From contig JALHQF010000001.1 of assembly GCA_022842085.1 (NCBI GenBank), positions 1 to 33,530 on the forward strand: a stretch of 33,530 nt of DNA, written 5' to 3'. The notes below the pieces were generated by a model. It saw only the letters and a list, made by a program, of their open reading frames with translations, had not been told where the DNA came from and ran no database searches. The translations under genes and the position numbers were made by a program. Positions 6,121 through 21,648 of the stretch are shown in pieces. How positions within the stretch are numbered: position 1 is the stretch's first letter; every line of letters begins with the position of its first letter. The stretch comes from Patescibacteria group bacterium. Its GTDB lineage: Bacteria; Patescibacteriota; UBA1384; CAILIB01.

Positions 6121-6126
6121 AGCCCC

Positions 6127-6132
6127 ATCCTA
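6127..6132 (-). promoter_or_regulatory. Candidate -10 hexamer TAGGAT, 6 nt upstream of the xth ATG
   Basis: The reverse strand reads GC TAGGAT GGGGCT ATG, inside the 27-bp mscL-xth gap. Confidence 0.4.
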
Positions 6133-6147
6133 GCAGGAACACGCTCC

Positions 6148-6468
6148 CTACTTTTTCTCGAGTATCGAGTCGTCTTTGAAGATCGCCTTCGCGGCAACGT
6201 AGACCACGAGTGCAATGATCAAGAAGTTAATGACCGCATCAATCACCTCTCCAACCATAAACTGCTGGCCACGTACGGTGTAGGAAAGCTCCGCAAGGCT
6301 TTGCGTCGGGTTAACTAGGCCGATGAGCGGGGTGATCAGTCCACTCACAATCTTATCGATGATACCGCTCACAGCGGTGGCCAGCACGAAGGCGATAGCA
6401 ACCGGAACAACATTGTACTGCTTGATAAAGGCCATAAAGCCTTTGGCTTGAGCGAGTGTTTTTGGCAT
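6148..6468 (-). CDS. mscL: Large-conductance mechanosensitive channel (short form)
   Basis: FIKQYNVVPVAIAFVLATAVSGIIDKIVSGLITPLIGLV parallels E. coli MscL ([39 protein letters not shown]). A second TM segment is FLIIALVVYVAAKAI. Confidence 0.88.
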   Translation of the reverse strand: MPKTLAQAKGFMAFIKQYNVVPVAIAFVLATAVSGIIDKIVSGLITPLIGLVNPTQSLAELSYTVRGQQFMVGEVIDAVINFLIIALVVYVAAKAIFKDDSILEKK

Positions 6469-6475
6469 AGGTTAG

Positions 6476-6481
6476 ATAGTA
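6476..6481 (-). promoter_or_regulatory. Candidate -10 hexamer TACTAT, 7 nt upstream of the mscL ATG
   Basis: The reverse strand reads AC TACTAT CTAACCT ATG. Confidence 0.4.
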
Positions 6482-6539
6482 GTCCTACGCTTACGCTAGC
6501 ACTCGCAGCCTGGCTGACAAGGGTAGGTGCGAATCTGAA

Positions 6540-6561
6540 AATGTTGATTAAATTCAACATT
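6540..6561. promoter_or_regulatory. 8-6-8 inverted repeat AATGTTGA-N6-TCAACATT (candidate operator) in the only AT-rich intergenic region
   Basis: Perfect 8-bp arms at 6540-6547 and 6554-6561, inside the 194-bp divergent spacer between mscL and the first glucan gene. TATTAA follows at 6565-6570. Confidence 0.45.
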
Positions 6562-6662
6562 ATCTATTAATGCTCTCAGACTTAGTTTTAGCGCACTGTC
6601 CCGTTAGGCGATTTGTTTCCAGATTGCCTAACCTGTACCGTGGGTAACGAACACTGTGCACC

Positions 6663-7913
6663 GTGCCTACATCTTCCGTACTCATGCTGGGCTGGGAGCT
6701 ACCCCCGTACAACTCGGGCGGCCTTGGTACTGCCTCGCTTGGTATCACCCAAGGCCTCAGCTCACTGGGAGTTGGGGTTCGTTTCGTTGTGCCCAAGGTC
6801 TTTGGGCCCTACCCCTTCTCACACATGCCAGTGCTCTCGGCCGTCGATCACGGCGAATCACTCCCTTGGGACGAGAGTGCGAGCCGTCAGCTGGGATACC
6901 ACACCGAACTACTCGAGATTAAGGGTCAACAGTTGGCGCTTCCAACGAAGGGCTACCTAAGCGCACAGCAGCAATCCGACTGGTACGCAGAAAAGGTGCT
7001 CGCCATCTCTGCAAAGGAGGCGCCGCCAAGCCTTATTCACACCCACGATTGGATGACCTACCGCGCTGGTCTGGCCGCTCGTGATGCCTTTCATGCACGT
7101 GGATTCCATACCCCCATGGTGGCACACATCCACGCCACCGAATTCGATCGCTCCGATCGGCACGGCAACCCAGAAATCTACGCCCTCGAGAAAGAGGGTC
7201 TCAACGGTGCCGATCGCGTAGTGGCAGTCTCCCAACTCACCGCAAGCATTGTGCACGAGGAGTATGGTGTGCCATTGGAAAAAATCCGCGTAGTCCATAA
7301 CGGGCACACAGCCCGCAGCAACCTCAAGCGTCACCCACACCCGCTCAAAGGTCGCCATCCGGTGGTGCTCTTCATGGGACGGGTTACCTGGCAGAAAGGG
7401 CCGGAGCACTTCCTCCGTTTTGCTGTCGCCCTCCTGAAGCTCGACCCTTCGGTGCGCTTTATCTTTGCAGGGAGCGGTGATCAGTACGAACGAATCATCG
7501 AACAGGCGGCAGGCAGCCAGCTCTCGGGTCGTGTGCTCTTTGCACCGTTTCTGCGCGGCGAAGAGGTAGACCGTGCCTACCAGCTCGCTGATCTCTTTGT
7601 GATGCCCAGTGAGTCCGAGCCGTTTGGCTTGGTTGCACTTGAGGCCATGGAGCACGGCACCCCAGTTCTCGCGAGCCCTCGCTGTGGCGTCAACGAGGTT
7701 GCCCCGAGTATCGTCGTAACCGATCACACCAACCCACTCGCTATGGCACGCGCTGCGCACACCATTCTGCACACCGATGATCGCGCAAAGCGCCTTGCCG
7801 CCATGCAGCACGATCTGCGGGCAAACAGCTGGCAGGTTGCCTGCCAGAAACTCCAAGCCGTCTACGACGAGCTCACCACTCCGGCACTTGCCCCCGTACC
7901 GGTAGCAGCATGA
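6663..7913 (+). CDS. GT4-family alpha-glucosyltransferase (glycogen-synthase-like)
   Basis: N-terminal E.PPYNSGGLG, then HTHDW, IHATEFDR, and the E-x7-E region PSESEPFGLVALEAMEHGTPVLAS. The track start is GTG at 6663; an alternative ATG is at 6684 (MLGWELPPY). Confidence 0.85.
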   Translation: MPTSSVLMLGWELPPYNSGGLGTASLGITQGLSSLGVGVRFVVPKVFGPYPFSHMPVLSAVDHGESLPWDESASRQLGYHTELLEIKGQQLALPTKGYLSAQQQSDWYAEKVLAISAKEAPPSLIHTHDWMTYRAGLAARDAFHARGFHTPMVAHIHATEFDRSDRHGNPEIYALEKEGLNGADRVVAVSQLTASIVHEEYGVPLEKIRVVHNGHTARSNLKRHPHPLKGRHPVVLFMGRVTWQKGPEHFLRFAVALLKLDPSVRFIFAGSGDQYERIIEQAAGSQLSGRVLFAPFLRGEEVDRAYQLADLFVMPSESEPFGLVALEAMEHGTPVLASPRCGVNEVAPSIVVTDHTNPLAMARAAHTILHTDDRAKRLAAMQHDLRANSWQVACQKLQAVYDELTTPALAPVPVAA

Positions 7914-9193
7914 CGCACGTCTGCTGCTACTTCGAGGTACACCAGCCGGTTCGCCTGCGTCGCTACCAACCTTTTGACGTTGCTACCGACGCTCCCTACT
8001 TCGACGACGCACTCAATAAGGAGGTAATGGAGAAAGTGGCCGAGAAATCGTACCGCCCAACTTTCAAGCTGCTCCACGAGATGCTCCAAGCAGATGAGCG
8101 CTTCTGCTTCGCGCTCAGCCTCACCGGCACTTGGGTTGAGCAGGCAAAACACTGGACACCCGACCTCCTTGCCCTGGTACAAAACCTTGTAGCCACAGGT
8201 CGTTGTGAACTCCTAGCCGAAACCTACTACCACTCCCTCGCAGGGCTCTTCGATGCCCGCGAGTTCCGCGAGCAGGTAGCGCTCCATACGAAGCTCATGC
8301 GAGAGACCTTTGGGGTAACCCCAACTACGTTCCGCAACACCGAGCTCATGTATTCAAACGGTATCGGAGATCTCATTGCCGACATGGGGTACCCACTTGT
8401 ACTCACGGAGGGAGCCGATCATATCCTCGCTGGACGGACACCAAACCACGTCTACCAAGCAACGAACCCCAAGCTCAAGCTCCTCCTCAAGCACTACAGC
8501 CTCTCAGATGACGTGGCGTTTCGATTTAGCGCTGCCCACCGGGCGGGACAACCCCTTACGGCCGATCGCTTTGCACACTTCATCCACGGAACAGCCGGCG
8601 AGGCGGAGTGCGTCAACCTCTTCATGGATTTCGAGACGTTCGGCGAACACCAGTGGGCAGACACCGGCATCTTCGAATTTCTCCGCGCACTTCCTGCGGC
8701 AATTCAAGCGCACCCCGATTTTACCTTTGGCACACCCGCACAGGTTGCGGCAAGTCACCCCACACGGGAAACCATTTCAGTAGAACACACGATTTCGTGG
8801 GCAGACCTCGAGCGAGACACCTCCGCTTGGTTAGGTAACGATATGCAGCGTGCCATGGCCAACCACGTGTACGCACTCGCTGAGCGTGTTCGCAGCGCTA
8901 ACAACCCGACACTTCTCCATACCTGGCGGCTTCTCCAAACCTCAGACCACACCTACTACGCCTCTACAAAGGGCTGGGGCGACGGTGACGTGCACAGCTA
9001 CTTCTCGGCATACGACCGCCCCCATGATGCGTTCGTAGCGCTCTCTAACGTCTTGGGAGATTTTGAGCTCCACCTTCCTCCGGCCACCAACGAGGATCCG
9101 CCACCCAAAAGCCGTCGGGCCGCTCTTCAATCGAAACACCTTCACCGCGCAGTAAGTCAGCCTGAAGAGCAGCACTCGCTGCGTGGTGCATAA
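7910..9193 (+). CDS. GH57-family glycoside hydrolase, alpha-amylase-type subfamily
   Basis: CYFEVHQPVRL (HQP region), FRNTELMYSN (nucleophile Glu region), FMDFETFGEHQW (acid/base Asp region), SDHTYYASTKGWGDGDVHSYFSAY. ATGA overlap with the upstream GT4 gene. The last 40 or so codons run antisense into the ATL gene. Confidence 0.85.
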   Translation: MTHVCCYFEVHQPVRLRRYQPFDVATDAPYFDDALNKEVMEKVAEKSYRPTFKLLHEMLQADERFCFALSLTGTWVEQAKHWTPDLLALVQNLVATGRCELLAETYYHSLAGLFDAREFREQVALHTKLMRETFGVTPTTFRNTELMYSNGIGDLIADMGYPLVLTEGADHILAGRTPNHVYQATNPKLKLLLKHYSLSDDVAFRFSAAHRAGQPLTADRFAHFIHGTAGEAECVNLFMDFETFGEHQWADTGIFEFLRALPAAIQAHPDFTFGTPAQVAASHPTRETISVEHTISWADLERDTSAWLGNDMQRAMANHVYALAERVRSANNPTLLHTWRLLQTSDHTYYASTKGWGDGDVHSYFSAYDRPHDAFVALSNVLGDFELHLPPATNEDPPPKSRRAALQSKHLHRAVSQPEEQHSLRGA

Positions 9194-9365
9194 TCGAAAG
9201 TCTTCCAACTTGGTTGACGATACGCCACCAAGGTAGCTCATCGTGCTTTCCAGCTAGCCACCAACCTACCTGTCGAGCCGCACGGGGCTGCCCTGCCATT
9301 CTCGCGATGCGCCCATAGCTAGAAACATAGCCTGCAGGAACTGATTGGATATACTGACCGTACAT
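9045..9365 (-). CDS. Alkyltransferase-like protein (ATL; MGMT DNA-binding domain without the acceptor Cys)
   Basis: VPAGYVSSYGRIARMAGQPRAARQVGWWL ... LPWWRIVN resembles E. coli YbaZ as I recall it (IPEGYVTTYGDVAKLAGSPRAARQVGGVL ... LPWHRVVN). Trp replaces the PCHR cysteine. The track start is GTG at 9374; I prefer ATG at 9365. Confidence 0.8.
   Translation of the reverse strand: MYGQYIQSVPAGYVSSYGRIARMAGQPRAARQVGWWLAGKHDELPWWRIVNQVGRLSIMHHAASAALQADLLRGEGVSIEERPDGFWVADPRWWPEEGGAQNLPRR
9350..9355 (+). promoter_or_regulatory. Candidate -10 hexamer TATACT, 8 nt upstream of the ATG at 9364 (inside the ATL coding region)
   Basis: TATACT GACCGTAC ATG. Confidence 0.35.
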
Positions 9366-9972
9366 GAAGCTCACTGTAGCCGAAGCACGTCCTCACCTCA
9401 TCCGCCTCAGCATAATCGCTGGGCTCTTCTGCATTATTCAGGCCACAAGCTACTGGAATAGCTCGGTGTACGATTACGAGTCAGCTATGAGCTGGAGTTG
9501 GGCAAGTAACTTTCTCAGCGACCTTGGGCGCACCACTTGGTACAACGGTATGGCTGCTCCCTTGGCGCAGCAGCTCTGGTTTGTGCTAGGCATGGGGAGC
9601 CTGGGCTTAGCCCTTGCACTGTGGTTTCGTGTGCACCGCGTGAGCACGGTACTTGGAACACTCGCAGGAACCGCTTTCCTTGGAGTAGCCCTTCTCCCTT
9701 CCGATATCGTGCGCTGGCCGCATCGAATTGCACTGCTCGCTGCACTCTGCCTTACCCTCGCAGCAGCACTAAGCGCCTGGCGCGCTTCGTGGGCAAACCG
9801 AGTCTTGGCGCTCTTCCTCCTTAGCTACCTAGCGTTCCTCGTGAGTTTTCCTCTTCCAGAAACGAGCAACGAAATCTCACTCGTGCATAGTGTTGCCCAG
9901 AAAATCGTTGTGCTCAGCACTATAGCAACAGTAGGAGCCGGCACGCTTCTTCCCTGGAAATCCCTGCGGTAA
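9364..9972 (+). CDS. Polytopic membrane protein (possibly DUF998-like)
   Basis: About 6 hydrophobic segments. The NFLSDLG motif after TM1 is reminiscent of the DUF998 family as I recall it. Family not verified. Confidence 0.7.
   Translation: MKLTVAEARPHLIRLSIIAGLFCIIQATSYWNSSVYDYESAMSWSWASNFLSDLGRTTWYNGMAAPLAQQLWFVLGMGSLGLALALWFRVHRVSTVLGTLAGTAFLGVALLPSDIVRWPHRIALLAALCLTLAAALSAWRASWANRVLALFLLSYLAFLVSFPLPETSNEISLVHSVAQKIVVLSTIATVGAGTLLPWKSLR
9373..9378 (-). promoter_or_regulatory. Candidate -10 hexamer TACAGT, 7 nt upstream of the ATL ATG at 9365 (inside the membrane-protein coding region)
   Basis: The reverse strand reads TACAGT GAGCTTC ATG. Confidence 0.35.
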
Positions 9973-9994
9973 CTTGCTATACCGCACATACCCC

Positions 9995-10000
9995 AGGAGG
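9995..10000 (+). promoter_or_regulatory. Shine-Dalgarno AGGAGG for the ketoacyl synthase gene
   Basis: AGGAGG ACGT ATG. It is one of only a few clear SD sites in the window. Confidence 0.6.
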
Positions 10001-10004
10001 ACGT

Positions 10005-11294
10005 ATGCTTAGAAAACCTAACATTTTTTTCAGTGGCCTTGGTGCCATAACGCCACTCGGACACTCGGCGCGAGCCACTTACCAAGCCCTGCTCGCAGGA
10101 AACACCGCCGTACACTCTCTCCAAGATCGAGCTGAGTTTCAAGGCATTGCCCCGGGTCATGCGGCGATCGTTACAGGCTTTACCCTTAGCGACCATGTGG
10201 GTGGCACCACTGTACGTGCTCTGCACCACCACGACCTCTCCCTGCACTACGCAGCTACTGCGCTCCAGGAAGCCCTCACGCAAGCTGGCGCCACCGTCGC
10301 TCCAGAGCGTACGGCACTTGTTGTAGCGGCAGGCATGGGCGGAATGGAGCTCCACCAAGCACACCAAAACGCGTTCCATGCCAAGCACCAAGCCTGGCTA
10401 GCCAGGCAAAGCGCCCCCGGCGCAAAGGTACGATCCAGGGAAATTGCCTCTCCACGCACCGTGGTTGGCATCATCCCCAACGCTGCAGCGGGAATGCTGG
10501 CAAACCTCCACGACATTCGTGGCGAATCCCTGGCGGTCTCCACGGCATGTGCCAGTGGAGCAAACGCCTACGGAGTCGCCGTACGGATGCTCCTGAGCGG
10601 AGAGTACGACCGCGTCTGCGTGGTGAGCTGTGATCAGGTTGTGACCCCACACAGTATGGCCGCCTTCGACGTGCTCGGTGCTCTTGCACCAGCAGGCGAA
10701 GATCCACAAACCATGAGTCGTCCGTACGACGTCTCAAGGGCAGGATTCTTGATGGCAAATGGTGCATGCGCCTACGTGCTGGAAACCAATTGCCAAAACC
10801 CACTCGCGATCCATGTTGGTTACGGCTCACGCAGTGACGGTGCCCGTGCTGAGGGGATGGTGAAACCTGCCGAAGATGGCGCTGCAGTTTGCGAAGCAAT
10901 CCAAGCATGTGGCGTTCTGCAATCAGGGTTGCGCAAGCTGTGGGTATCATCCCACGGTACGAGCACACCAATTGGAGACATTGCGGAGGCTCGTGGTATC
11001 TGCCGAGCACTCGAAACCACTGAGCACAGGTGGTCCGTAAGCTCGATCAAGGGTTCGCTAGGACATATGATTGGCGCAGCACCTGCCGCAGCGATTGTCA
11101 CTGGCGTACTTGCACTCACTACAGGTGGCGTGCCTGGTACGACAAACCTCCGCAACGTAGATCACGAGCTTCCCGAAGCCTTCCGGTACCGACTACTTAC
11201 CTATGGGAGCCAAGCGTGCCCAGACGCAGTACTCGTACTCGCCAGTGGCTTTGGTGGACACCATGCCGCACTTGCCTTTGCCAAGGTAGCCTAA
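10005..11294 (+). CDS. Beta-ketoacyl-ACP synthase I/II-type condensing enzyme (FabF/FabB-like), orphan
   Basis: Cys-His-His triad motifs are present: AVSTACASGANA, SSHGTSTPIGD and IKGSLGHMIGAAPAAA. C-terminal SGFGGHHAAL. No acpP, fabD, fabG, fabZ or fabI nearby. Confidence 0.85.
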   Translation: MLRKPNIFFSGLGAITPLGHSARATYQALLAGNTAVHSLQDRAEFQGIAPGHAAIVTGFTLSDHVGGTTVRALHHHDLSLHYAATALQEALTQAGATVAPERTALVVAAGMGGMELHQAHQNAFHAKHQAWLARQSAPGAKVRSREIASPRTVVGIIPNAAAGMLANLHDIRGESLAVSTACASGANAYGVAVRMLLSGEYDRVCVVSCDQVVTPHSMAAFDVLGALAPAGEDPQTMSRPYDVSRAGFLMANGACAYVLETNCQNPLAIHVGYGSRSDGARAEGMVKPAEDGAAVCEAIQACGVLQSGLRKLWVSSHGTSTPIGDIAEARGICRALETTEHRWSVSSIKGSLGHMIGAAPAAAIVTGVLALTTGGVPGTTNLRNVDHELPEAFRYRLLTYGSQACPDAVLVLASGFGGHHAALAFAKVA

Positions 11295-11398
11295 CCCAAA
11301 CCCGATCACACAGCTGGTCGGGTTCTTGCTTTTCTGGTGAAGCACTTGTACACTATGAAGGCCTTTTGTTGAAGGCTTTCAACATAGCAATATACCAT

Positions 11399-11701
11399 AT
11401 GGCCATTCCACAGGGCGTTGACGCCCGCACCTTCCACGCTCCCGATGAGAAAAGCTTCACCCTTGTCACGGGCGAAACGCTCCGCACCCTCGATGATCTC
11501 TCCGAGGCAATCAACCTCATCGAGCCCGAGCCTTTCTACCACCACGTGCACGATGGTGAAAACCACTTCGCCGATTGGGTAGAGCACGTCTTTGGCGAGC
11601 ATGAGCTTGCAAGCCAACTGCGCGATCACCCTACCCCGCTACGAATGATCGTCGCCATCGAGCGCTTCCTGCGCGACCGTAGCGTTCCTGCGGCAGCCTA
11701 G
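11399..11701 (+). CDS. Small conserved hypothetical protein (possibly DUF5752-like) upstream of the GT3 synthase
   Basis: MAIPQGVDARTFHAPDEKSFTLVTGETLRTLDDLSEAINLIEPEPFYHHVHDGENHFADWVEHVFGEHELASQL. The track ORF 11030..11701 overlaps the KAS gene out of frame, so the first in-frame ATG past the KAS stop (11399) is used; in-frame TTG codons at about 11369-11374 are alternatives. Family resemblance is from memory only. Confidence 0.6.
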   Translation: MAIPQGVDARTFHAPDEKSFTLVTGETLRTLDDLSEAINLIEPEPFYHHVHDGENHFADWVEHVFGEHELASQLRDHPTPLRMIVAIERFLRDRSVPAAA

Positions 11702-11706
11702 CTCCT

Positions 11707-13110
11707 GTGCCCCAGACCCCCTGGCTCCTGGAGGCATCTTGGGAAGTTTGTAATCCCGTTGGTGGCATCTTTACCGTTATCACCAGTAAGCTTCCTGAGG
11801 TAACTAAGCGGTTTCACGACCGCTACATTGCCGTTGGACCATTAGCTGGCAGCCGTACCGGTTTTCGTCCCGATCGCAGCTGGCTCCCCGCAACACTTAG
11901 CACCCTACCGCTAGAGGCAGGGTGGTGGGAGCCATACGGCGTGCGGGCGCTCCTGCTGCCCGGCATAGCTGAGCTCGACGTCTGGAAAACTCGTCTCTGG
12001 GAGGAGCACCAGCTCGATACGCTCGGCGCATCTATTGAGGTACTCGAACCGTTGGCTTGGTCGCTGCAGGTAGGTGAAGTTGCGCGGGCACTGAGCAACG
12101 ATGTCCCCGTACTGCTCCACACGCACGAATGGCTTGCAGCCGGTGCGCTCTGTACGTACCAGGGACCCTCGGTATTCACTACTCACGCTACGGTAGTTGG
12201 CCGCATCACCAGCGGTGCGTTTGAAATGACGCCAGATCAGGCAACCCAGACCGCGCGCGATCACCTCAGCATTGCCAAGCACCAGCTGGAGCAACTTGGG
12301 ATCAGGCTTGCCTCGGTTGCCACTACCGTTTCTCCCATTACGGCTCGCGAGTGCCAGCGAGTTCATGGCGTCCTGCCACGCGTTGTAGCAAACGGCATAC
12401 TCGAGAGCAGCATTAACCGGCGCCTGGCATACCAGACCGTCATGCCGTTCCTAGCGCGCAGTTGGATGCCTGGCCTTGATACCCACAGCAAGCTTATCGT
12501 GAGCCACGGTCGCCCAGAACTCCACAACAAGGGTTTTGACCTTGTTCTCGAAGCGCTTGCCGCTCTCCGCACGCTTCCCCTCAAGCAACCCATCATAGCC
12601 GTCTTCGCCACACCGGTTCCTGGAGTGCGGAGCCTGGCCGACCCAGGTGGCCTCTCACCGTTCCGCGAGCAAGATGCCATTGTTGACCTTGCGAGGCAGT
12701 ATGGTTTCCCAGGCGATCCCCGTGTACGGGTTTTCTCTATTGCCACCGATATCAACCATGGTCCCTTCCCTGGCTTCCCCATAGATACCCTGCTCGCTGC
12801 TGCCGACGTGGGGGTGTTTCCCTCCCGCTACGAGCCATTTGGCTACACTCCACTCGAAGCGCTGCGGGTAGGCACGCCAGCCATCACTTCTCCAACGGCA
12901 GGTTTTGCCGAACTTGCCGGAGGGCTTCCAGGGGTAGAGGTGGTTGAAGCGCTCAGCGCTCCTGCTGTAGCTCGCAGCCTACTCAAAGCCCTCGCCAACC
13001 CAACCCCAGAAGACCTTTGCCGTGAAACTGCTCGCCACTTTAACTGGCAGGCGCTCATGGAAGGATACGACCGTGCTTATGCCCAAGCCTCGCACCTTTC
13101 TAGGCGATAG
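11707..13110 (+). CDS. GT3-family (eukaryote-type) glycogen synthase homologue
   Basis: Compared with animal/yeast glycogen synthases as I recall them. LLEASWEVCNPVGGIFTVITSK matches E.AWEVANKVGGIYTVLQTK. FTTHATVVGR matches FTTHATLLGR. FPSRYEPFGYTPLEALRVGTPAITS matches FPSYYEPWGYTPAEC..MG.PS.ST. GTG start. Confidence 0.85.
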   Translation: MPQTPWLLEASWEVCNPVGGIFTVITSKLPEVTKRFHDRYIAVGPLAGSRTGFRPDRSWLPATLSTLPLEAGWWEPYGVRALLLPGIAELDVWKTRLWEEHQLDTLGASIEVLEPLAWSLQVGEVARALSNDVPVLLHTHEWLAAGALCTYQGPSVFTTHATVVGRITSGAFEMTPDQATQTARDHLSIAKHQLEQLGIRLASVATTVSPITARECQRVHGVLPRVVANGILESSINRRLAYQTVMPFLARSWMPGLDTHSKLIVSHGRPELHNKGFDLVLEALAALRTLPLKQPIIAVFATPVPGVRSLADPGGLSPFREQDAIVDLARQYGFPGDPRVRVFSIATDINHGPFPGFPIDTLLAAADVGVFPSRYEPFGYTPLEALRVGTPAITSPTAGFAELAGGLPGVEVVEALSAPAVARSLLKALANPTPEDLCRETARHFNWQALMEGYDRAYAQASHLSRR

Positions 13111-14608
13111 CCGCAGCTGGTTGCTGTGGGGTAAGGAATCGGTGAGCTCCTATGATGGATGGTACGTACCGTCAGGACCATTTCCTGCCCCCTACCAAAA
13201 GCTCCTGCACCGAATTGAGAGCTTCCAGGGCACAGCCCTTAACTACCAGTTTCCCAGGCCCGGCACACTGCGCGTAACGTCGGCCGACCCCACCGATCTG
13301 CACCTCTACTTTGATCCGCGCTTGCAGCATGCACCCGATTGCGATGGCCGAAGCTTTTCTGTTGAACATACTCAACATGGTGCTCGTATTCACTACAAAG
13401 GGCCAGATACGCAGCTTGAGATCCACCTTAGTGGCACCGGAGATATTGGTCGTGGCCGCTGGCGATCCGTAGCAACCCCTCTAGATGTAGCCCGCGGCAC
13501 TGGGCCAGGTGAACGGTGGTGCTGGGTGCTCGATGTCTTTGAAGTCACCAACCTCTCCATTGAGGTAGCCCCAACACTCAGCTGGGAAGCACCGCAGAGC
13601 CGCCTCACCAGCTACAACTCGCCAATTGCCCGCGCTGCGCGCGCCACACTAGAAGCTCTTGCCACCCCCCAAGGCTACCTCGCAGGATTCCCTTGGTTCC
13701 ACCAAGCTTGGACTCGTGACGAGCTCATTGCCGCCCTAGGGCTGGAGCCAGACGAGCGTGAGGCACTAATACAGCGCTACGCTTCACTAGAGCTCAAGGA
13801 GGGCGAGTGGCCCACCTTCGATGGGAGTGGCACCACCTGCTCAGATGGCCTCGCCTGGTTTACCCTCCTCCTGCAAGTGCATGGCTCAGTCTCGCAAGAG
13901 GCACAGATACAGCTAGAGCACGCGGTGAACGGCCTCCAGTCAAAGCTAGATAGCCACCTGGGCTTCGTAAGCAACCACTGGAACGCCACCTGGATGGATA
14001 CCATCGGCCGCGAAGGGTACCGCCTGGAGGTTCAAGCAGGGTATGCAGCGGCACTACGCCTCCTTGGCAGGGAGCGTGAGGCGCGCAGATTTGAGCGACA
14101 TGTACTCAATCACTTCTGGCAGAGTGGCAAGCTCCTCGACGGTTTCTTCCCCGATGGCACGCCCGACACCACTCCGCGCCTGAACGGTTTTCTTGCGTAC
14201 CTTATCGCCCCACACCTCCTTAGCCGAGCCCACTGGACGCGCACCTTTGCGGATGCCCTCCAAGCCTGCTCACTCCCCTGGGGTGGACTTGCCTCAGTGG
14301 CAACCCATCACCCCAGCTACCATCCGGACAGTGACGGCGCCCGTAATGGGAGCTACCACCAGGGGGATACCTGGTGGTTTATGCATGGCCTTGTGCTTAC
14401 GGCACTCAAACGACTCGGCGCCCGCAACCTCGCTGGATACCAGAAACAGCTCTGGCAAGCAGCGGAGCGAGAGTGTCTTGAGGGCCAGGTGCCTGGCTAC
14501 TGCGGTGAGATTAGCGAAGCGGTAACTGGTGAGAGCCTCGGGTGCGGCGTGCAGGCATTCTCAGCCGGCGCACTCATGCTCGCCTGTCGCGAGTATGGGC
14601 GCGACTAG
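13079..14608 (+). CDS. Amylo-alpha-1,6-glucosidase / glycogen debranching enzyme C-terminal domain protein (GDE_C)
   Basis: GFPWFHQAWTRDELIA and YHQGDTWWFMHGLVL are typical GDE_C (alpha/alpha)6 motifs. The track ORF starts at 13022 inside the GT3 gene. ATG at 13079 is the first Met after it; the true start is uncertain and may be a later GTG or TTG. Confidence 0.82.
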   Translation: MPKPRTFLGDSRSWLLWGKESVSSYDGWYVPSGPFPAPYQKLLHRIESFQGTALNYQFPRPGTLRVTSADPTDLHLYFDPRLQHAPDCDGRSFSVEHTQHGARIHYKGPDTQLEIHLSGTGDIGRGRWRSVATPLDVARGTGPGERWCWVLDVFEVTNLSIEVAPTLSWEAPQSRLTSYNSPIARAARATLEALATPQGYLAGFPWFHQAWTRDELIAALGLEPDEREALIQRYASLELKEGEWPTFDGSGTTCSDGLAWFTLLLQVHGSVSQEAQIQLEHAVNGLQSKLDSHLGFVSNHWNATWMDTIGREGYRLEVQAGYAAALRLLGREREARRFERHVLNHFWQSGKLLDGFFPDGTPDTTPRLNGFLAYLIAPHLLSRAHWTRTFADALQACSLPWGGLASVATHHPSYHPDSDGARNGSYHQGDTWWFMHGLVLTALKRLGARNLAGYQKQLWQAAERECLEGQVPGYCGEISEAVTGESLGCGVQAFSAGALMLACREYGRD

Positions 14609-14985
14609 CACTTCTCTAGCAGGGCGAGGCGATCTACCTCAAACTGGGCCTCGATAGCACGTAGCTGCTTAAGGAAGTATGCACGTTCCCTTGTCACCAT
14701 CTGCTCAACCTGCTGACGCTCGGCACGAGTGAGGTTCTCTGTGAGGAGGGTTTGATAGGTTTCAATCTGCGTAACCATCTCTGCCTCAACAGCGGCCCGG
14801 GCCACATCGGCTCCAGAGCGCAAGCGATCGAGCCCCTCACAGGTGCGCACACCGGCAACATCGCCAGCAGAAGAAACCTGCACAGGACCCAGTGTTTGGG
14901 TAAGCCCCATGAGACACATGGCACAGAGCGCTCCACTCACCGTGGTGCGAGCGCTGAGCTGGTGCCGTACGTGTGCATGTCGCAT
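14605..14985 (-). CDS. Hypothetical small protein with an N-terminal hydrophobic segment and a coiled-coil tail
   Basis: MRHAHVRHQLSARTTVSGALCAMCLMGLTQTLGPVQVSSA..., followed by a heptad-like Q/E/R-rich tail. The track start at 15075 would overlap the divergent membrane gene, so ATG at 14985 is used. No family recognised. Confidence 0.45.
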   Translation of the reverse strand: MRHAHVRHQLSARTTVSGALCAMCLMGLTQTLGPVQVSSAGDVAGVRTCEGLDRLRSGADVARAAVEAEMVTQIETYQTLLTENLTRAERQQVEQMVTRERAYFLKQLRAIEAQFEVDRLALLEKC

Positions 14986-14995
14986 ACGAAAAGCG

Positions 14996-15001
14996 TACCA
15001 T
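14996..15001 (+). promoter_or_regulatory. Candidate -10 hexamer TACCAT, 6 nt upstream of the ATG at 15008
   Basis: TACCAT ACCCCC ATG. Confidence 0.4.
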
Positions 15002-15007
15002 ACCCCC

Positions 15008-16273
15008 ATGACACCTGCGTCATCTCTCCCTACCCCTCCTGTCCGTTGGCTGCTCAGTCTTGGTGGTGCACTCACCGTTCTCGGTGTCTACCTCGTTGTA
15101 CGGAGCAGCTGGTCTGATCTCGCCCCAGTTGCTCGCATGCTCCTCGTGCTGGTTCCACTCATTGCCACCTATGCGATGGCATGGTCTGCAAACAAGCGTG
15201 AAGCAACCCGAAGCTTTGTCGATGAGCTCCTGCTGACAGCCGGCCTCATCCTGCCATTTTCGGTAGGCGCAGCCTTGGTGCAAGTGGGTGCCTTTGAGGG
15301 ATGGACATCACTCCTCACCTTTTCGATGGCGATGCTCACCCTTGCGGTAGCAAAGCTGTTAAACATCGTTTGGGGACAGGATAAGCAATCGGCACTCGTC
15401 GCACTCAGTGCGATCGTGGCATCAATTAGCCTCGGCAGCCACTTGAGTGCTCCACTCGGCTGGCACCTCATTGCACTCGCCGTAATCGGGCTGGGACTAC
15501 TCGGACTTGGTATTTGGAAAGGCGTAGCAAGTGCCTGGGAACGCACTTCCTACCACCGGATTGGCATGTCGCTTTTCGTGCTTGGTGGCTTTATCGCACC
15601 GTTTGCCCTCACCATGGAGCGGGGCATAAATATCGGCCTCACCTACTTCTTGGGATACGCTAGCTTTGGAATTCTCGCCCTAGCTATTGCCGCAAGTATC
15701 GGTAAAAGGTACGAGGCAACGCTACCCGATACCCTCCTGTACGAGCACCGCACCCTGGCAGAATGGAGCGCAGGTATCGCACTTTCGGCCGGCATGCTCC
15801 TGGCCGGAACGCAGGGTACCGCTGGCGAAATCATAGCCGGACTCGTAGTCTCCCTTGGCCTGCTTGCCCTTGGCTACAGTATCCCCTTCCGCCCGTACCG
15901 CTTCCTCGGTGGGGCTGCCTCTGTGCTCCTCGTGTTCGTACTGCTCATCGACACACTCGATGACTTACTTGCCTACTGGCCAGTTGCCCTTGTAACACTT
16001 GGAATCGGCGCCATGTGGTATGCACTACGAATCGCCGGCCGACAAACAGGAGCCGAAAAAGAAGGTGCTTTATCTACGGGTGAGCCCTGGAATAACATCG
16101 GCAAACCCTTGCCACAGCCGGCCATTCGAAACCACGCAGACGACGCGCATCCCGACACCCTTGCTGGTGGCTTACCCTACCCACCAGCACGCGGCGAAAA
16201 GAGCGACTCTACGAGTGGCTGGGCGAGTGTCGGTATCCTTATCGGCATCCTCCTCTTCCTTTCGATCCTGTAG
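15008..16273 (+). CDS. Polytopic integral membrane protein (about 11-12 TM) with a Pro-rich cytoplasmic loop before the last TM
   Basis: Continuous series of hydrophobic helices. The start is moved from the track's 14843 to ATG at 15008 (MTPASSLPTPPVRWLLSLGGAL...). It ends 9 nt before the phosphorylase gene. Confidence 0.75.
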   Translation: MTPASSLPTPPVRWLLSLGGALTVLGVYLVVRSSWSDLAPVARMLLVLVPLIATYAMAWSANKREATRSFVDELLLTAGLILPFSVGAALVQVGAFEGWTSLLTFSMAMLTLAVAKLLNIVWGQDKQSALVALSAIVASISLGSHLSAPLGWHLIALAVIGLGLLGLGIWKGVASAWERTSYHRIGMSLFVLGGFIAPFALTMERGINIGLTYFLGYASFGILALAIAASIGKRYEATLPDTLLYEHRTLAEWSAGIALSAGMLLAGTQGTAGEIIAGLVVSLGLLALGYSIPFRPYRFLGGAASVLLVFVLLIDTLDDLLAYWPVALVTLGIGAMWYALRIAGRQTGAEKEGALSTGEPWNNIGKPLPQPAIRNHADDAHPDTLAGGLPYPPARGEKSDSTSGWASVGILIGILLFLSIL

Positions 16274-16276
16274 ACT
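16271..16276 (+). promoter_or_regulatory. Candidate -10 hexamer TAGACT, 6 nt upstream of the phosphorylase ATG; it contains the stop codon of the upstream gene
   Basis: TAGACT TAGCCC ATG. Confidence 0.35.
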
Positions 16277-16282
16277 TAGCCC

Positions 16283-17971
16283 ATGCCTGGAGGGGATCAC
16301 AGCATTGCTTACCTCTGTGCCGAGTTTGGCCTCGGTGACCACCTGCCAATCTACGCAGGTGGCCTTGGTGTTCTCGCGGGAGACCTCCTCCTCGAGGCCG
16401 CCGCTCAGCAGGTTCCGCTAGTAGGCGTTGGACTGTTCTACCCACTTGGCACGTTCCACCAGGACGTTGACGCGCGTGGTCAACACGAGTCCACCACCCG
16501 TACCGACCCACGGCAGGTGCCGCTCGAACTGGTGCAAGACGGAAGTGGTGAAACGCTACTTACCCCTGTTCCTCTGGGTAATCGTGATATCTACCTGCAA
16601 GCTTGGCGATACCAGCGCGGAGGCGTAACCCTCTACCTCCTCGATAGCGACCACTGGCAGAACAGCCCTGAAGACCGCGCCATTACCGCCCAGCTCTACG
16701 GTGGAGACCAGCGAACCCGAATCCAGCAAGAAGTACTGCTTGGCATTGGCGGCTACCGTTTCCTCAAGCGTATGGGACACGCTCCGAAGACCTGGCACCT
16801 CAACGAGGGTCATGCTGCCTTTGCCGGCCTCGAACTCGTAAGTGAAGCCTGCGCAGCAGGTGATGCGCCAGAGCTTGGCCGTCGCAAGGTAAGTGGCAGC
16901 TTGGTGTATACCAACCATACGGTAGTTCCAGCTGGTAACGATGCATTCTCGATAGAGCTCGTCACGGAAACCCTCGAGCGGTACGCCTTCCAGAGCAACC
17001 TCTCGATGCACGATATTCTCAACTGGGGAGCCGAACCTGGGGAGCCAGGCCGCTTTAGCATGACACGCCTTGCGCTGCGCCTCGCAGGCACTTCGAGCGC
17101 GGTGAGTCGCTTACATGGGCAGGTTGCCCGCCAAATTTGGCCAGAGCACTCGTTTACACCGGTAACCAACGGCGTACACTTGCCGCGCTGGGTGGGAGAA
17201 GAGCTTACGGAACTCCTCAATGAGTATGCTCCAGCTTGGCAGACTCGAGCACACGACCCACGCACCTGGCTTGCCGTACGACGCATGTCGCTCCCCCTCT
17301 TCTGGGATGCAAAATTGGCCGCCAAGGGTCGGCTTGTACAGTACGTTCAACACGAGACTGGGATACTCCTCGACAACGAACAGCCTATCGTGGTGTGGGC
17401 ACGGCGTTTCGCAACGTACAAACGACCAGATCTCTTGCTTACCGACCTGGAGAAGCTCCGCACCCTCCTGGCACGCGGTCTTCAGGTTATATACGCAGGG
17501 AAAGCTCATCCAAGTGATACGCAGGGCAAGGAGATCCTCCGCCACATCGCTGAACTCTCTTTCGGTGAGTTTAGAGGAAAGCTGGTATTTCTCGAAGGCT
17601 ACTCGCTTACCCTTACCCAGCTTCTGGTACAAGGTGCAGACATTTGGCTCAACACTCCAATCGAGGGCCATGAAGCAAGCGGTACGAGTGGCATGAAAGC
17701 GGCGGCAAACGGCGCTATTCAGGTAACTACCAATGATGGCTGGGCCGCCGAGGTGGACTGGTACGGCATGGGCATGGTGATTCCCGAAGGTGCCGCCGCA
17801 GCCGAAGGTCTCTACCAACACCTTGGTAAGCTCATGGATCTCTACCAGCGACGCCATAATGGCGTGCCCGAGCGATTTGTGGCCATGCAGCGCGAAACCC
17901 TAGTTGAGGTGAGTGGACCCTTCTCTGCCACGCGCATGCTAAGGGAGTACGAGGAAAAGCTCTGGAACTAG
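16283..17971 (+). CDS. glgP: Alpha-glucan phosphorylase (GT35, short type)
   Basis: N-terminal IAYLCAEFGL..LPIYAGGLGVLAGD. PLP-lysine motif EASGTSGMKAAANGA. VYTNHT. Confidence 0.9.
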   Translation: MPGGDHSIAYLCAEFGLGDHLPIYAGGLGVLAGDLLLEAAAQQVPLVGVGLFYPLGTFHQDVDARGQHESTTRTDPRQVPLELVQDGSGETLLTPVPLGNRDIYLQAWRYQRGGVTLYLLDSDHWQNSPEDRAITAQLYGGDQRTRIQQEVLLGIGGYRFLKRMGHAPKTWHLNEGHAAFAGLELVSEACAAGDAPELGRRKVSGSLVYTNHTVVPAGNDAFSIELVTETLERYAFQSNLSMHDILNWGAEPGEPGRFSMTRLALRLAGTSSAVSRLHGQVARQIWPEHSFTPVTNGVHLPRWVGEELTELLNEYAPAWQTRAHDPRTWLAVRRMSLPLFWDAKLAAKGRLVQYVQHETGILLDNEQPIVVWARRFATYKRPDLLLTDLEKLRTLLARGLQVIYAGKAHPSDTQGKEILRHIAELSFGEFRGKLVFLEGYSLTLTQLLVQGADIWLNTPIEGHEASGTSGMKAAANGAIQVTTNDGWAAEVDWYGMGMVIPEGAAAAEGLYQHLGKLMDLYQRRHNGVPERFVAMQRETLVEVSGPFSATRMLREYEEKLWN

Positions 17972-17976
17972 CAAAA

Positions 17977-17997
17977 GCCCAGCCGCTATGGCTGGGC
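17977..17997. terminator. 8-bp stem hairpin between convergent glgP and the acyltransferase gene; the acyltransferase stop codon lies in the loop
   Basis: gcccagcc / loop gctat / ggctgggc. AAAA lies 5' on the + strand, giving a U-tract for the minus-strand transcript. Confidence 0.6.
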
Positions 17998-18621
17998 GCT
18001 CTTCGTTGCCTGATCGATGAGGGCCTGAAAGAACCCTTCGTCAGGAGGGAGGAACACCGCTCCCTGAAACGTAATGCTCGGAAACCACCCCCAGCGCATG
18101 CGCACACCAAAGGGCACGAGGATCGCACCCGAGCTCCTCATGAGAGCAGGAACGCTCTGAAGCACAGGCGCACAGCCGCTGCTGGGATCGTATCCAGCGC
18201 ACTTCCACGTATAGGTGCCATGGGGGTAGAGAATGATGGACTCACCCTGCTCTTTAAGCACCCGCAGTAGGGTGCGGTATGCCTGGCTCCGCTGCTCCCC
18301 TGAGCTGCGGTCTACAAACACACACCGTCCAACATCACCGTACAGCCACTTTAGGAAACGATTTCCCTCGTACTGGCTCTTTGCTACATAGCGATAGGAC
18401 ACCCGAAGGCGCAGCATGCACCACACCAGCATGGCCTGCTCCAGCCAGCAGAGGTGGTTGCCAGCAAAGATCACCGGAAGGGCGTGCTTCTTTGCGTGAG
18501 CACAGGCAACCTTTGCGTGCTGAAAACCGTGGACACGAGACCCAAAAAGGTAGCTAAGCGCACTGAGTGATCCGGAGAGAACGCAGCGCACCAACGTGTT
18601 AACCGAGTTCAAAAGGTTCAT
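17986..18621 (-). CDS. Lysophospholipid (PlsC-type) acyltransferase family protein with substituted catalytic motifs
   Basis: Block I is FAGNHLCWLEQ (H-x4-E instead of H-x4-D). Block II is YVAKSQ...GRCVFVDR. Block III is YPHGTY (instead of FPEGTR). Block IV is ILVPFGV. Confidence 0.65.
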   Translation of the reverse strand: MNLLNSVNTLVRCVLSGSLSALSYLFGSRVHGFQHAKVACAHAKKHALPVIFAGNHLCWLEQAMLVWCMLRLRVSYRYVAKSQYEGNRFLKWLYGDVGRCVFVDRSSGEQRSQAYRTLLRVLKEQGESIILYPHGTYTWKCAGYDPSSGCAPVLQSVPALMRSSGAILVPFGVRMRWGWFPSITFQGAVFLPPDEGFFQALIDQATKSAQP

Positions 18622-18627
18622 GGCGCG

Positions 18628-18633
18628 ACCATA
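18628..18633 (-). promoter_or_regulatory. Candidate -10 hexamer TATGGT, 6 nt upstream of the acyltransferase ATG
   Basis: The reverse strand reads TATGGT CGCGCC ATG. Confidence 0.4.
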
Positions 18634-18671
18634 GCGGAACCTATGAGAGCTGTCATGTCCTGTCGTACACT

Positions 18672-19766
18672 ATGTACGTGCCAAAGCATCTGCAAATCGA
18701 CTACTCACGCCTCCTCCAACACCACCTGGGAATCTTGGAGTCGATGCAAACCAAGAACGGCCTGTTCCTTGCTTCTCCCGTAGGCGTGTCTACTGGATAC
18801 GACAAGGCATGGCTGCGCGATAACTTCTACGAGTGCATGGCGTTTGAGTACGTCGGCCGCTGGGATGTGGTACACAAAACCTACCGTGCCATTCTCAACA
18901 TCTTCCTCAAGCACGAGGAGAAAATCGATTGGGCAATCTCCCACAAGCCAACCGAGAAGTTCCAATACATCCACCCTCGATACAACCCGGAAACTTTCGA
19001 TGAGTTTTGGGAAGAGTGGGGCAACAAGCAACACGACGCAATCGGAGCCATCCTCTTTCGCATTGGCGAGCTCGAAGACCACCTCGGGTTCACGGTGATT
19101 GAATCACCCGACGATAAGCGGATTATTCAGAAACTCGTCGACTACCTTGCGGCAATTCGCTACTGGGAAGACCCAGACAATGGGGTATGGGAAGAGAACG
19201 AAGAGGTGCACGCATCGTCCGTCGGCGCCTGTGTAGCAGGGCTCAAGAAGATACAGTCCCTCGATCTCTTCCATGTGCCGGATGAGCTCATTTCTCAGGG
19301 TGAAGCCACTCTGCGCCGCCTCCTCCCACGCGAGAGTGAGGGAAAGTTTGTCGATCTCGCCGAGCTCAGTCTCATCTACCCTTTTGACGTAGTAACTCCC
19401 CAAGAACGTGACCGCATCCTGGAGAACGTGGAGTACCACCTCGTAAAGGAGCGGGGCGTACTCCGCTACAAGGGCGACTACTACTACAACGCCGACGTCG
19501 ACGGCAAGTCACAGGAGGCTGAGTGGACGTTTGGCTTCTCGTGGCTTGCGATCATCTACGAGCGGATGGGCAATAAGGATAAGGCGAAGCACTACCTGCG
19601 GGAGGCTATGGGTACGATCAACGCGATCGGCGATATCCCGGAGCTCTACTACAGCAACTCACCCGCCCACAACGAGAACTCCCCTCTCGGCTGGAGTGAG
19701 AGCATGTTTGTCATTGCGCTCCTACGCTTCTACGACCAGTGGGTAGTTCCAACACCAAAACCATGA
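18672..19766 (+). CDS. Stand-alone GH15 (alpha/alpha)6 domain protein, phosphorylase-kinase alpha/beta N-terminal-like
   Basis: GLFLASPVGVSTGYDKAWLRDNFYE, IHPRYNPET...WGNKQHDAIG, NGVWEENEEVHASSVGACVAGL, LLPRESEGKFVDLAELSL, EAEWTFGFSWLAI, IPELYY and PLGWSESMFVIAL. Each has a collinear counterpart in the human PHKA N-terminal domain as I recall it. TACACT at 18666-18671 abuts the ATG, so GTG at 18678 may be the leaderless start. Confidence 0.85.
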   Translation: MYVPKHLQIDYSRLLQHHLGILESMQTKNGLFLASPVGVSTGYDKAWLRDNFYECMAFEYVGRWDVVHKTYRAILNIFLKHEEKIDWAISHKPTEKFQYIHPRYNPETFDEFWEEWGNKQHDAIGAILFRIGELEDHLGFTVIESPDDKRIIQKLVDYLAAIRYWEDPDNGVWEENEEVHASSVGACVAGLKKIQSLDLFHVPDELISQGEATLRRLLPRESEGKFVDLAELSLIYPFDVVTPQERDRILENVEYHLVKERGVLRYKGDYYYNADVDGKSQEAEWTFGFSWLAIIYERMGNKDKAKHYLREAMGTINAIGDIPELYYSNSPAHNENSPLGWSESMFVIALLRFYDQWVVPTPKP

Positions 19767-21613: not shown

Positions 21614-21621
21614 AAAAGTGA

Positions 21622-21642
21622 CGCCACCCCGAGGGGTAGCGC
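21622..21642. terminator. Imperfect hairpin between convergent alkA-like and thyX genes
   Basis: cgccacccc / gag / ggggtagcg (9-bp stem, one C-A mismatch) in the 35-bp gap. Confidence 0.4.
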
Positions 21643-21648
21643 CAAGTG

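Follow-up and report, generated by a model that had tools for sequence, protein, structure and literature searches.

Glycogen systems that are built on a synthase of glycosyltransferase (GT) family 3 and are independent of GlgC and GlgB have so far been discussed mainly for DPANN archaea, methanogens and Bacteroidetes. Glycogen storage with such an enzyme set has been proposed as a hallmark of DPANN (PMC10266531), and reviews already cover GT3 together with the glycoside hydrolase (GH) families GH133, GH57 and GH15 in DPANN and further archaea (PMC11046441, PMC10266531). In the 2024 review (PMC11046441), the DPANN GT3 enzymes group near PVC bacteria and eukaryotes, and archaeal GT4-GH133-GH57 clusters are reported. 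In Sulfolobus acidocaldarius, the amyA(GH57)-glgA and glgC-gaa(GH15)-glgX(GH133) operons have been genetically tied to glycogen (PMC8158581). Here we describe a related locus from an uncultivated, ultra-small bacterium of the candidate phyla radiation (CPR), a group not mentioned in that review (PMC11046441). It lies in a stretch of 33.5 kb from a Patescibacteria group bacterium (contig JALHQF010000001.1; G + C content approximately 57%), which is referred to as the window throughout. The locus probably encodes a cluster for the synthesis and mobilisation of intracellular glycogen (alpha-1,4/alpha-1,6-glucan), based on GT3 and independent of GlgC and GlgB. Judged from its sequence, it represents the form taken in CPR and DPANN by a non-classical glycogen module that is built on GT3 and widespread among prokaryotes.

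The domain content of the open reading frames (ORFs) in the window was determined with Pfam and NCBIfam profile scans. The genes between 6.6 and 19.8 kb form a run that points mostly in one direction. A preliminary reading of this DNA, made from its letters without database searches (the sequence-only reading), had placed six alpha-glucan enzymes here, and profile hidden Markov models (HMMs) recovered all six, each above its Pfam cut-off. These are, all on the forward strand, a retaining GT4 glucosyltransferase resembling GlgM, Rv3032 and 'glgA_Coryne' (6663..7913), a GH57 protein of the short amylase type with 427 amino acids (aa; 7910..9193), a shortened GT3 glycogen synthase of 467 aa (11707..13110), a stand-alone GH133 (GDE_C) amylo-alpha-1,6-glucosidase of 509 aa (13079..14608), a GT35 alpha-glucan phosphorylase of the short prokaryotic type with 562 aa (16283..17971), and a short, single-domain GH15 protein of 364 aa (18672..19766). 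The cluster has a seventh conserved member, which the sequence-only reading had missed: a protein of 100 aa belonging to the OrfY/DUF5752 family (11399..11701, forward strand). The genes are tightly packed. The ATGA overlap between the GT4 and GH57 genes at 7910-7913 is present as had been claimed, the stop codon of the DUF5752 gene is followed after 5 nt by the GT3 start, and the GT3 and GH133 genes share 32 nt (with the GH133 ATG at 13079), an overlap that is identical in the related locus L001. Promoter and terminator scans of positions 6100-21700 performed no better than shuffled controls (4 where 5.1 were expected, and 14 where 11.1 were expected), and operon boundaries are drawn from overlaps and spacing only. 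As a hydrophobic N-terminal stretch was found in none of the six glucan enzymes, they are probably cytoplasmic.

The sequence-only reading had described this gene set as concentrated in one bacterial locus. To place it, the window was compared by tblastn and HMM searches with 82 loci anchored on the GH15 gene only, all ORFs of which were clustered without preselection, and with 80 metagenome loci (L083-L162) anchored on GT3. In L001, a contig of 125 kb, the gene order from PilB to Tmk is that of the window, minus an antisense acyltransferase gene, with protein identities of 75-95%, and the order is also kept in L002. The Berkelbacteria-like and other Patescibacteria loci (L003-L008) have the arrangement DUF5752-GT3-GH133...GT35-GH15 in common, with the exceptions of L007, which has no GT3, and L004, whose contig begins inside GT3; in L006 and L008 a GH57 gene lies upstream of this set. 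The DPANN loci L045, L053 and L065 likewise contain GT4, GH57, DUF5752, short GH15, GT3 and GH133, here as a compact GT4-GH57-DUF5752-GH15-DUF5752-GT3 run with the GH133 and phosphoglucomutase genes convergent to it. Across the 82 GH15-anchored loci, the top recurrent neighbours detected by HMM were DUF5752, GH57, GDE_C, GT3, GT4 and GT35, each in 9-15 loci; the nearest unrelated neighbour family occurred in 11.

The GT3-anchored metagenome loci, which come from other lineages and include human-gut contigs, carry GH57 in 38/80 cases, GT4 in 39/80 and GH133 in 31/80. A GT4-GH57-GT3/GT35 arrangement was found in 30 of the 80, and 22 of those 30 have GH133 in front; in these 22 loci GH133-GT4-GH57 is followed by a GT3-GT35 fusion of approximately 1400 codons. 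These bacterial loci thus share with the window the same five families and the GT4-GH57 pairing, and their GH57 and GT4 proteins score 440-670 bits against HMMs built from CPR and DPANN proteins. They differ in that GT3 and GT35 are fused (the JGI name is 'phosphorylase/glycogen(starch) synthase'), whereas they are separate in the window, and in having neither DUF5752 nor the short GH15. The set is therefore not confined to one bacterium; it is a widespread prokaryotic module found in CPR, DPANN and other metagenome lineages. Its gene order is conserved in relatives, from L001 and L002 through L003-L008 to the DPANN and metagenome loci, which indicates a functional cluster rather than a chance juxtaposition.

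Compared with the archaeal glycogen systems of Sulfolobus and DPANN, the window has the same complement of synthase, amylase-type GH57, GH133, GH15 and GT35 families, its GH57 gene is likewise paired with a gene for a synthase-like glycosyltransferase, and it too has no GH13 or recognised GH57 branching enzyme. Sulfolobus differs in its synthase, a GT5 GlgA with glgC in the operon, whereas the window has GT3 with no glgC nearby, and in its glucoamylase of approximately 660 aa, in place of which the window has a short GH15 resembling phosphorylase kinase (PhK).

The synthase in the middle of the cluster was assigned to GT3 by the sequence-only reading, with GT4 or GT5 as the outcome that would have spoken against it. 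The assignment holds, as the protein scored 90.4 bits against PF05693 Glycogen_syn (1.4e-25; cut-off 27) versus 53.9 against Glycos_transf_1 and 23.8 against Glyco_transf_5. Its best relatives of solved structure are the human GYS1 (4.3e-26), yeast Gsy2p (7.4e-25) and C. elegans (5e-21) synthases, followed at a distance by the GT5 GlgA of P. abyssi (3e-7). The blocks shared with GYS1 and Gsy2p are kept: EVCN-VGGI, HEW, FTTHAT--GR, GR-E--NKG and YEP-GYTP-E (the E-x7-E motif) are invariant across its relatives. In 11 sequences the invariant residues comprised E9, W12-E13-V14-x-N16, G19-G20-I21, H140-E141-W142, F157-T-T-H-A-T..G165-R166, R269/E271/K275-G276 and Y375-E376-P..E384. We take these blocks, from what is known of the family, to be the catalytic and donor-binding sites. 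The protein is shorter than its solved eukaryotic counterparts (467 aa versus chains of 634-762 aa). More than 1400 homologues were found, but close relatives are two only, at 75-77% identity (one of them on the L001 contig), with the next at 36%, and an exact-sequence look-up returned no database record.

Directly upstream of GT3 lies the DUF5752 gene, an arrangement found in 10 of the 11 evaluable loci from CPR and DPANN, where the two genes overlap or are at most 20 nt apart; the DPANN loci have a second DUF5752 copy after GH57. The match of the window protein to PF19027 is borderline (23.8 bits, cut-off 23), but several of its close homologues carry precomputed PF19027 matches. These close homologues number 27 (98-133 aa, 54-91% identity) and share a conserved core of approximately 80 residues. 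The AlphaFold model is helical, with a predicted local distance difference test score (pLDDT) of 89.8. Among solved structures it has one relative only, T. tenax OrfY, the prototype of DUF5752, which was deposited as 'transcription factor' under 4CSO (Foldseek probability 0.92). The two proteins share a small helical domain and the NDF(A/S)xW motif. They differ in that OrfY contains two tandem copies in 216 aa, whereas the window protein has one in 100 aa, and the fit is weak (profile E=1.3e-3, with two repeats matched; template modelling (TM) score 0.46 over the query and 0.24 over the target length). Our best guess is that the DUF5752 protein acts on or with GT3, as its regulator or partner. 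The domain is widespread, with 3316 representative clusters, and its fusion partners, which were considered as a functional hint, were heterogeneous (a protein kinase plus S1, a HerA-like ATPase and others) and uninformative. Literature searches on DUF5752, OrfY and K07190 in a glycogen context returned nothing useful. The position upstream of GT3, like the unusual conservation of the PhK-like GH15 discussed below, seems to be undescribed, and, as far as could be searched, both proteins are known from automatic annotation only.

Two further arrangements of this gene were observed. In the Patescibacteria locus L007 (2021-4247), GH133 comes straight after a DUF5752 gene and GT3 is missing from its place, so DUF5752 can persist without an adjacent GT3. 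In three DPANN loci (L060 2292-3062, L046 1594-2364 and L040 19358-20131), a gene for a ParA/MinD-type ATPase stands between two DUF5752 genes, in the context GH57-DUF5752-ParA-DUF5752-long GH15; a role in positioning, for instance of granules, is conceivable.

The first two genes of the cluster form a pair that recurs in L001, in the DPANN loci and in 38 metagenome loci. The GT4 protein matches Glycos_transf_1 (1.1e-30) and Glyco_transf_5 (1.9e-15), and has the N-terminal motif GWELPPYNSGGLG. It scored 92.7 bits against TIGR02149 and 84.5 against TIGR02095, both under the NCBIfam cut-off, and its closest solved relatives are an MshA-like enzyme (1e-17), GlgM (6TVP, 1.8e-12) and P. abyssi GlgA (7e-12). 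From these affinities, GT4 is a candidate second synthase or initiator. Its partner is a clear member of GH57 (PF03065, 3.7e-72, 243.5 bits) in which the five conserved regions are invariant among 11 sequences: HQP, G..E, NTE(145), D(240)xExFGEH and SDH.YY. Going by the known GH57 motifs, we assume that these regions have their usual roles, with E145 as the nucleophile and D240 as the acid/base. No PF09210 match was found by Pfam, that is, the protein has no DUF1957/branching-enzyme C-domain. With the single sequence, phmmer found no relative among solved structures; a profile built from the related loci matched the T. litoralis 4-alpha-glucanotransferase (5e-9), and then AmyC (0.01) and the Thermus branching enzyme 1UFA (0.08). 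By these comparisons, the protein is to be placed outside the branching-enzyme subfamily typified by Thermus TTHA1902, T. kodakarensis and Rv3031.

The sequence-only reading had seen no obvious branching activity in the locus, but to take it as absent would go beyond the evidence. For archaea without GlgB, short amylase-type GH57 proteins have been proposed to be the branching enzyme that has escaped recognition, because an S. acidocaldarius amyA mutant loses its glycogen and amyA is co-transcribed with glgA (PMC11046441, PMC8158581). The GH57 of the window is thus a candidate branching or 4-alpha-transfer enzyme. Alternatively, because its best solved match is a 4-alpha-glucanotransferase, it could supply the 4-alpha-transfer step that is absent from the stand-alone GH133.

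For GH133 (PF06202, 1.6e-15, 57.3 bits, cut-off 21), the single sequence again found no match among solved structures, and a profile from related loci was needed. This profile matched the C. glabrata debrancher GDE (5e-16) and 8zeq (1.2e-14) ahead of the archaeal-type 7VMA (7e-6); its best fit is thus to the glucosidase at the C terminus of animal and fungal debranchers, with the solved archaeal enzyme behind, which bears out the kinship proposed by the sequence-only reading. The protein is not a bifunctional debrancher of the eukaryotic kind, as it consists of GDE_C and MGH1-like domains only, with no N-terminal GH13. The phosphorylase has other affinities. GT35 scored 514 bits against the prokaryotic TIGR02094 (cut-off 191.7), and only 95.1 bits (cut-off 552.9) against the long type TIGR02093 (approximately 800 aa), which includes the eukaryotic glycogen phosphorylases. 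It contains EASGTSGMKAAANG, which resembles the pyridoxal-phosphate lysine motif. Its gene is directly upstream of GH15 in L001 and in L004-L008, with a gap of at most 12 nt or an overlap in L004-L008.

The short GH15 protein (PF00723, 1.2e-13, 51.3 bits, cut-off 22) had been likened to the N-terminal domain of PhK alpha/beta, and this likeness was upheld by both sequence and structure. At E<=1, its only solved matches were PhK alpha and PhK beta, whether the single sequence (3e-11 and 7e-8) or the family profile (3.5e-17 and 4.7e-12) was used. Its AlphaFold model (pLDDT 81.8) is a helical (alpha/alpha)6 barrel, and the top six Foldseek matches were PhK alpha/beta (TM 0.70-0.80), followed by isomaltose glucohydrolase 5Z3A. 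The resemblance is to domain D1. The PhK domains D2-D5 are absent from the 364-aa protein (PhK subunits exceed 1000 aa), and the window scans returned no protein kinase domain. Its database label, 'phosphorylase kinase alpha/beta subunit', should therefore be understood as likeness at the level of one domain and not as membership. Invariant residues of the protein include W173-E174-E175 and E324, the counterparts in alignment of the WEE motif and the Glu of the SEQ motif in long GH15 glucoamylases (hhalign probability 97%); the Glu matching E185 of PhK alpha is among the residues kept. These long glucoamylases, of approximately 660 aa, co-occur with the short GH15 in some DPANN loci, and their profile matches classical glucoamylases, not PhK. 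The best structural match of known activity is the isomaltose glucohydrolase of Kribbella flavida (PDB 5Z3A-F, 7C24-27; TM 0.74-0.75 over the query and 0.72-0.73 over the target length), which is likewise a single (alpha/alpha)6 barrel of approximately 370 aa with no N-terminal beta-sandwich. It differs in sequence (19-20% identity, with no sequence match at E<=1), and its substrate preference is not transferable. With its catalytic glutamates aligned in this way, the short GH15 is a probable exo-alpha-glucosidase. It should be noted that PhK alpha has both glutamates, yet showed no activity on maltose, isomaltose or glycogen (PMC10978961).

The short GH15 is also the conservation outlier of the cluster. 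Between the bacterium of the window and DPANN archaea its identity is 60-66%, compared with 26-32% for GT3, 27-29% for GH133, 33-38% for GT4 and 42-49% for GH57, which suggests either a very strong constraint or a recent transfer between domains. Its homologues across CPR and DPANN number 3527 at 60-76% identity, and a scan of the GTDB species representatives gave 531 confirmed matches, the best of which are in Candidatus Berkelbacteria and other Patescibacteria (69-74%). The source is therefore most likely a CPR bacterium with no near relative among sequenced representatives, the nearest being Candidatus Berkelbacteria.

The sequence-only reading had called this toolkit eukaryote-type. By closest solved relatives this is borne out for GT3, GH133 and the short GH15, but not for GT35, which is of the prokaryotic TIGR02094 type, and it is further weakened in that the families are abundant in prokaryotes (CPR, DPANN and Bacteroidetes-like bacteria). 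Moreover, the window lacks glycogenin (GT8), a branching enzyme of family GH13, the transferase half (GH13) of the debrancher, PhK D2-D5 and any kinase subunit.

The reported absence of the classical partners glgC, glgB and glgX from the window was confirmed, as the large ORFs of the 33.5 kb contained no NTP_transferase (glgC/galU) or GH13 domain; the same holds for the glycogenin-type GT8 domain. The classical GlgC-GlgA(GT5)-GlgB pathway is thus not represented within the window, where the GT4 protein reaches 84.5 bits against TIGR02095 at a cut-off of 328. Some of the related loci are better equipped, as they add phosphoglucomutase (DPANN L045, L053 and L065), a fusion of phosphoglucomutase (PGM) with GT35 (the 1162-aa PGM-DUF3417-GT35 protein of L069, 15058-18546), a TrmB sugar regulator and glycolytic genes. 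A sugar-nucleotide supplier was sought in the flanks of the related loci, and GalT/HIT-like nucleotidyltransferase genes (GalP_UDP_transf, DUF4921) were found in two DPANN loci only, inside the clusters of L063 (7175-8131) and L065 (16853-17770). These are possible suppliers of nucleoside diphosphate (NDP)-glucose in place of GlgC or GalU. The gene beside GH133 in L045, L053 and L065 clusters by BLAST with the PGM-GT35 fusion, but is a phosphoglucomutase and not a phosphorylase by Pfam.

Taken together, these results make the glycogen cluster the best explanation of the locus, and its enzymes may be arranged as follows, with substrates assigned by family. NDP-glucose would be made elsewhere in the genome, probably as UDP-glucose by analogy with eukaryotic GT3, and GT3 would elongate alpha-1,4 chains from it, with the OrfY/DUF5752 protein acting with or on GT3 as a partner or regulator. 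The GT4-GH57 pair would provide two activities, those of a glucosyltransferase, either a second one or the initiating one, and of a transglycosylase, the latter being the candidate for branching or 4-alpha-transfer. In mobilisation, GT35 would shorten the outer chains to yield glucose-1-phosphate, GH133 would remove the alpha-1,6 stubs, and the short GH15 would free glucose from the small oligosaccharides left over.

Several observations weigh against this explanation. Neither the proteins of the cluster nor any close homologue has been assayed, and archaeal GT3 has been called uncharacterised (PMC11046441). A sugar-nucleotide pyrophosphorylase, a phosphoglucomutase, a recognised branching enzyme and a primer protein were found neither in the window nor in L001. 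The GT3 of the window and its two close relatives do not have an insertion of approximately 75 residues (alignment columns 355-435) that is present, as a helical segment, in all other prokaryotic GT3s compared, which are relatives of 580-600 aa. The matching region of eukaryotic synthases forms inter-subunit helices. With the insertion missing, the activity or oligomeric state of the window GT3 may differ. In addition, 65 of the 83 GH15-anchored loci (the window counted) show no further glucan gene at a distance of up to 10 kb, so GH15 is not tied exclusively to the glucan cluster. Finally, CPR bacteria are thought to be host-dependent.

Because of this host dependence, we kept as a rival a role in scavenging only, in which the hydrolases and the phosphorylase would use host or imported maltodextrins or glycogen, the glycosyltransferases would make something else, for example a cell-surface glycan or a compatible solute, and no storage polymer would be formed. 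It would fit the window's want of an NDP-sugar supplier and of a recognised branching enzyme. In the DPANN loci L060 and L046, moreover, the short GH15 gene stands beside a PfkB kinase gene and glycolytic genes, and environmental papers have read the GH57, GH15 and GH133 of DPANN as starch or glycogen degradation (PMC11606122). Scavenging alone, however, would leave a synthase-family GT3 with the blocks common to the human and yeast enzymes intact, and it sits poorly with the gene overlaps that tie GT3 to GH133 and GT4 to GH57, the recurrence of the synthase-plus-hydrolase module across phyla and the lack of secretion signals on the hydrolases. The loss of glycogen in the S. acidocaldarius amyA mutant (PMC8158581, PMC11046441) also speaks for a role of such a hydrolase in storage. 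We therefore consider scavenging improbable, although it is the strongest of the rivals.

The similarity of the GT4 protein to GlgM raises another possibility, that it acts as an alpha-maltose-1-phosphate synthase feeding a maltosyltransferase in a GlgE-like route. GlgM (6TVP, at the 1.8e-12 given above) is among its best solved relatives, and the same question has been raised for archaeal GT4 genes clustered with GH133 and GH57 (PMC11046441). However, the MshA-like GT4 outscores GlgM, no GH13 (GlgE) was found in the window or among the scanned neighbour genes of the related loci, and a direct synthase is already present in GT3, so that a GlgE-like route is very unlikely.

About as little can be said for a modified glucan, acylated or similar to the methylglucose lipopolysaccharide (MGLP) of mycobacteria, in which GT4-GH57 would correspond to Rv3032/Rv3031 and acyl groups would be added by other proteins of the run. 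The sequence-only reading had raised both ideas, and in their favour stands a group of genes interleaved with the glucan genes: a 202-aa membrane protein (9364-9972, forward strand), a fabF-like ketoacyl synthase (KAS; 10005-11294, forward strand; ketoacyl-synt 9.4e-28) and a PlsC-type acyltransferase (17986..18621, reverse strand; PF01553 1.4e-9). The KAS scored 217 bits against TIGR03150, under the NCBIfam equivalog cut-off of 494, with the ACAS, HGT and GH motifs conserved, presumably as a Cys-His-His triad. Together with the membrane protein it is retained in L001 and L002 at 58-65% identity. These two genes, however, were found in the window, L001 and L002 only and are missing from all other related loci, and the acyltransferase is missing even from L001, where GT35 directly precedes GH15, as well as from L003-L008. 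In the window it lies on the opposite strand and splits the GT35-GH15 adjacency that is otherwise conserved. Comparison therefore gives no support for an acylated or MGLP-like product, as the KAS and acyltransferase genes are lineage-confined and no methyltransferase or acetyltransferase was found in the cluster by Pfam. The mycobacterial locus does resemble the window in that its GT4 gene, Rv3032, adjoins the GH57 gene Rv3031. Rv3031-type GH57 proteins are branching-enzyme-like, of approximately 520 aa with a DUF1957 C-domain. The analogy fails at this point, since the GH57 of the window has 427 aa, no DUF1957 and an E value of only 0.08 to the Thermus branching enzyme; in addition, the MGLP methyl- and acyltransferases are absent. 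The KAS, the 202-aa membrane protein and the acyltransferase are probably lineage- or genome-specific inserts that do not belong to the glucan system, if their distribution is a guide. CPR bacteria are usually described as lacking fatty-acid synthesis, and here a fabF-like KAS stands inside a cluster of a probable CPR bacterium.

Finally, carbohydrate genes without any connection might have come to lie side by side by chance in a small genome, for which the interleaved non-glucan genes and the promoter and terminator scans might be cited. This can be put aside as exceedingly improbable given the start/stop overlaps between genes and the recurrence of these families, in an unchanged order, in CPR, DPANN and further lineages.

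Returning to the glycogen cluster, a broader proposition can be built upon it, which as a whole we regard as possible but rather unlikely. Three components of glycogen metabolism in animals and fungi would have free-standing prokaryotic counterparts preserved in the CPR/DPANN module, namely glycogen synthase, the debrancher's glucosidase half and the glucoamylase-like D1 domain of PhK alpha/beta. As parts of the same proposition, GH15 would be active and would work with, and perhaps bind, the phosphorylase, representing the ancestral state of the apparently inactive PhK D1, and the OrfY/DUF5752 protein would be a dedicated partner of GT3, either an initiator scaffold or a regulator, that fills the gap left by glycogenin.

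If the locus is read as a glycogen cluster, a CPR bacterium joins the GT3-based systems, and one core module spans very distant lineages. The cluster would also offer biochemistry a set of small, single-domain, eukaryote-like enzymes: the 467-aa GT3, the stand-alone GH133 and a PhK-like GH15 with both catalytic glutamates. The last of these could clarify why PhK has a glucoamylase-like domain without detectable activity (PMC10978961), and the GH57 bears on which enzyme does the 'missing' branching in archaea and CPR (PMC11046441). How a prokaryotic GT3 starts or controls synthesis without glycogenin is a question for which the DUF5752 protein offers a candidate answer.

The remaining genes of the window provide a few further observations. 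Between GH133 and GT35 lies a DUF2157 membrane protein (14843..16273, forward strand; PF09925, 36 bits), which is found in the same position in L001, L004 and L007, and a small minus-strand ORF recurs between GH133 and GT35 in L003-L008. A perfect GC-rich hairpin at 17977-17997 stands between the convergent ends of the GT35 and acyltransferase genes, with a terminator score on both strands. Elsewhere in the window are genes for PilB, DnaX, MscL, ThyX, Tmk, Dcd, alanine racemase, a P-type ATPase and similar functions. In the PilB-type T2SSE ATPase (1538-3517, reverse strand), residues 6-60 at the N terminus match HU/Bac_DNA_binding (4.7e-8), and the same fusion is present in L001. The ThyX homologue (21649-23490, reverse strand) has the unusual length of 613 aa and only a partial match to the Thy1 domain, and its L001 version has 603 aa.

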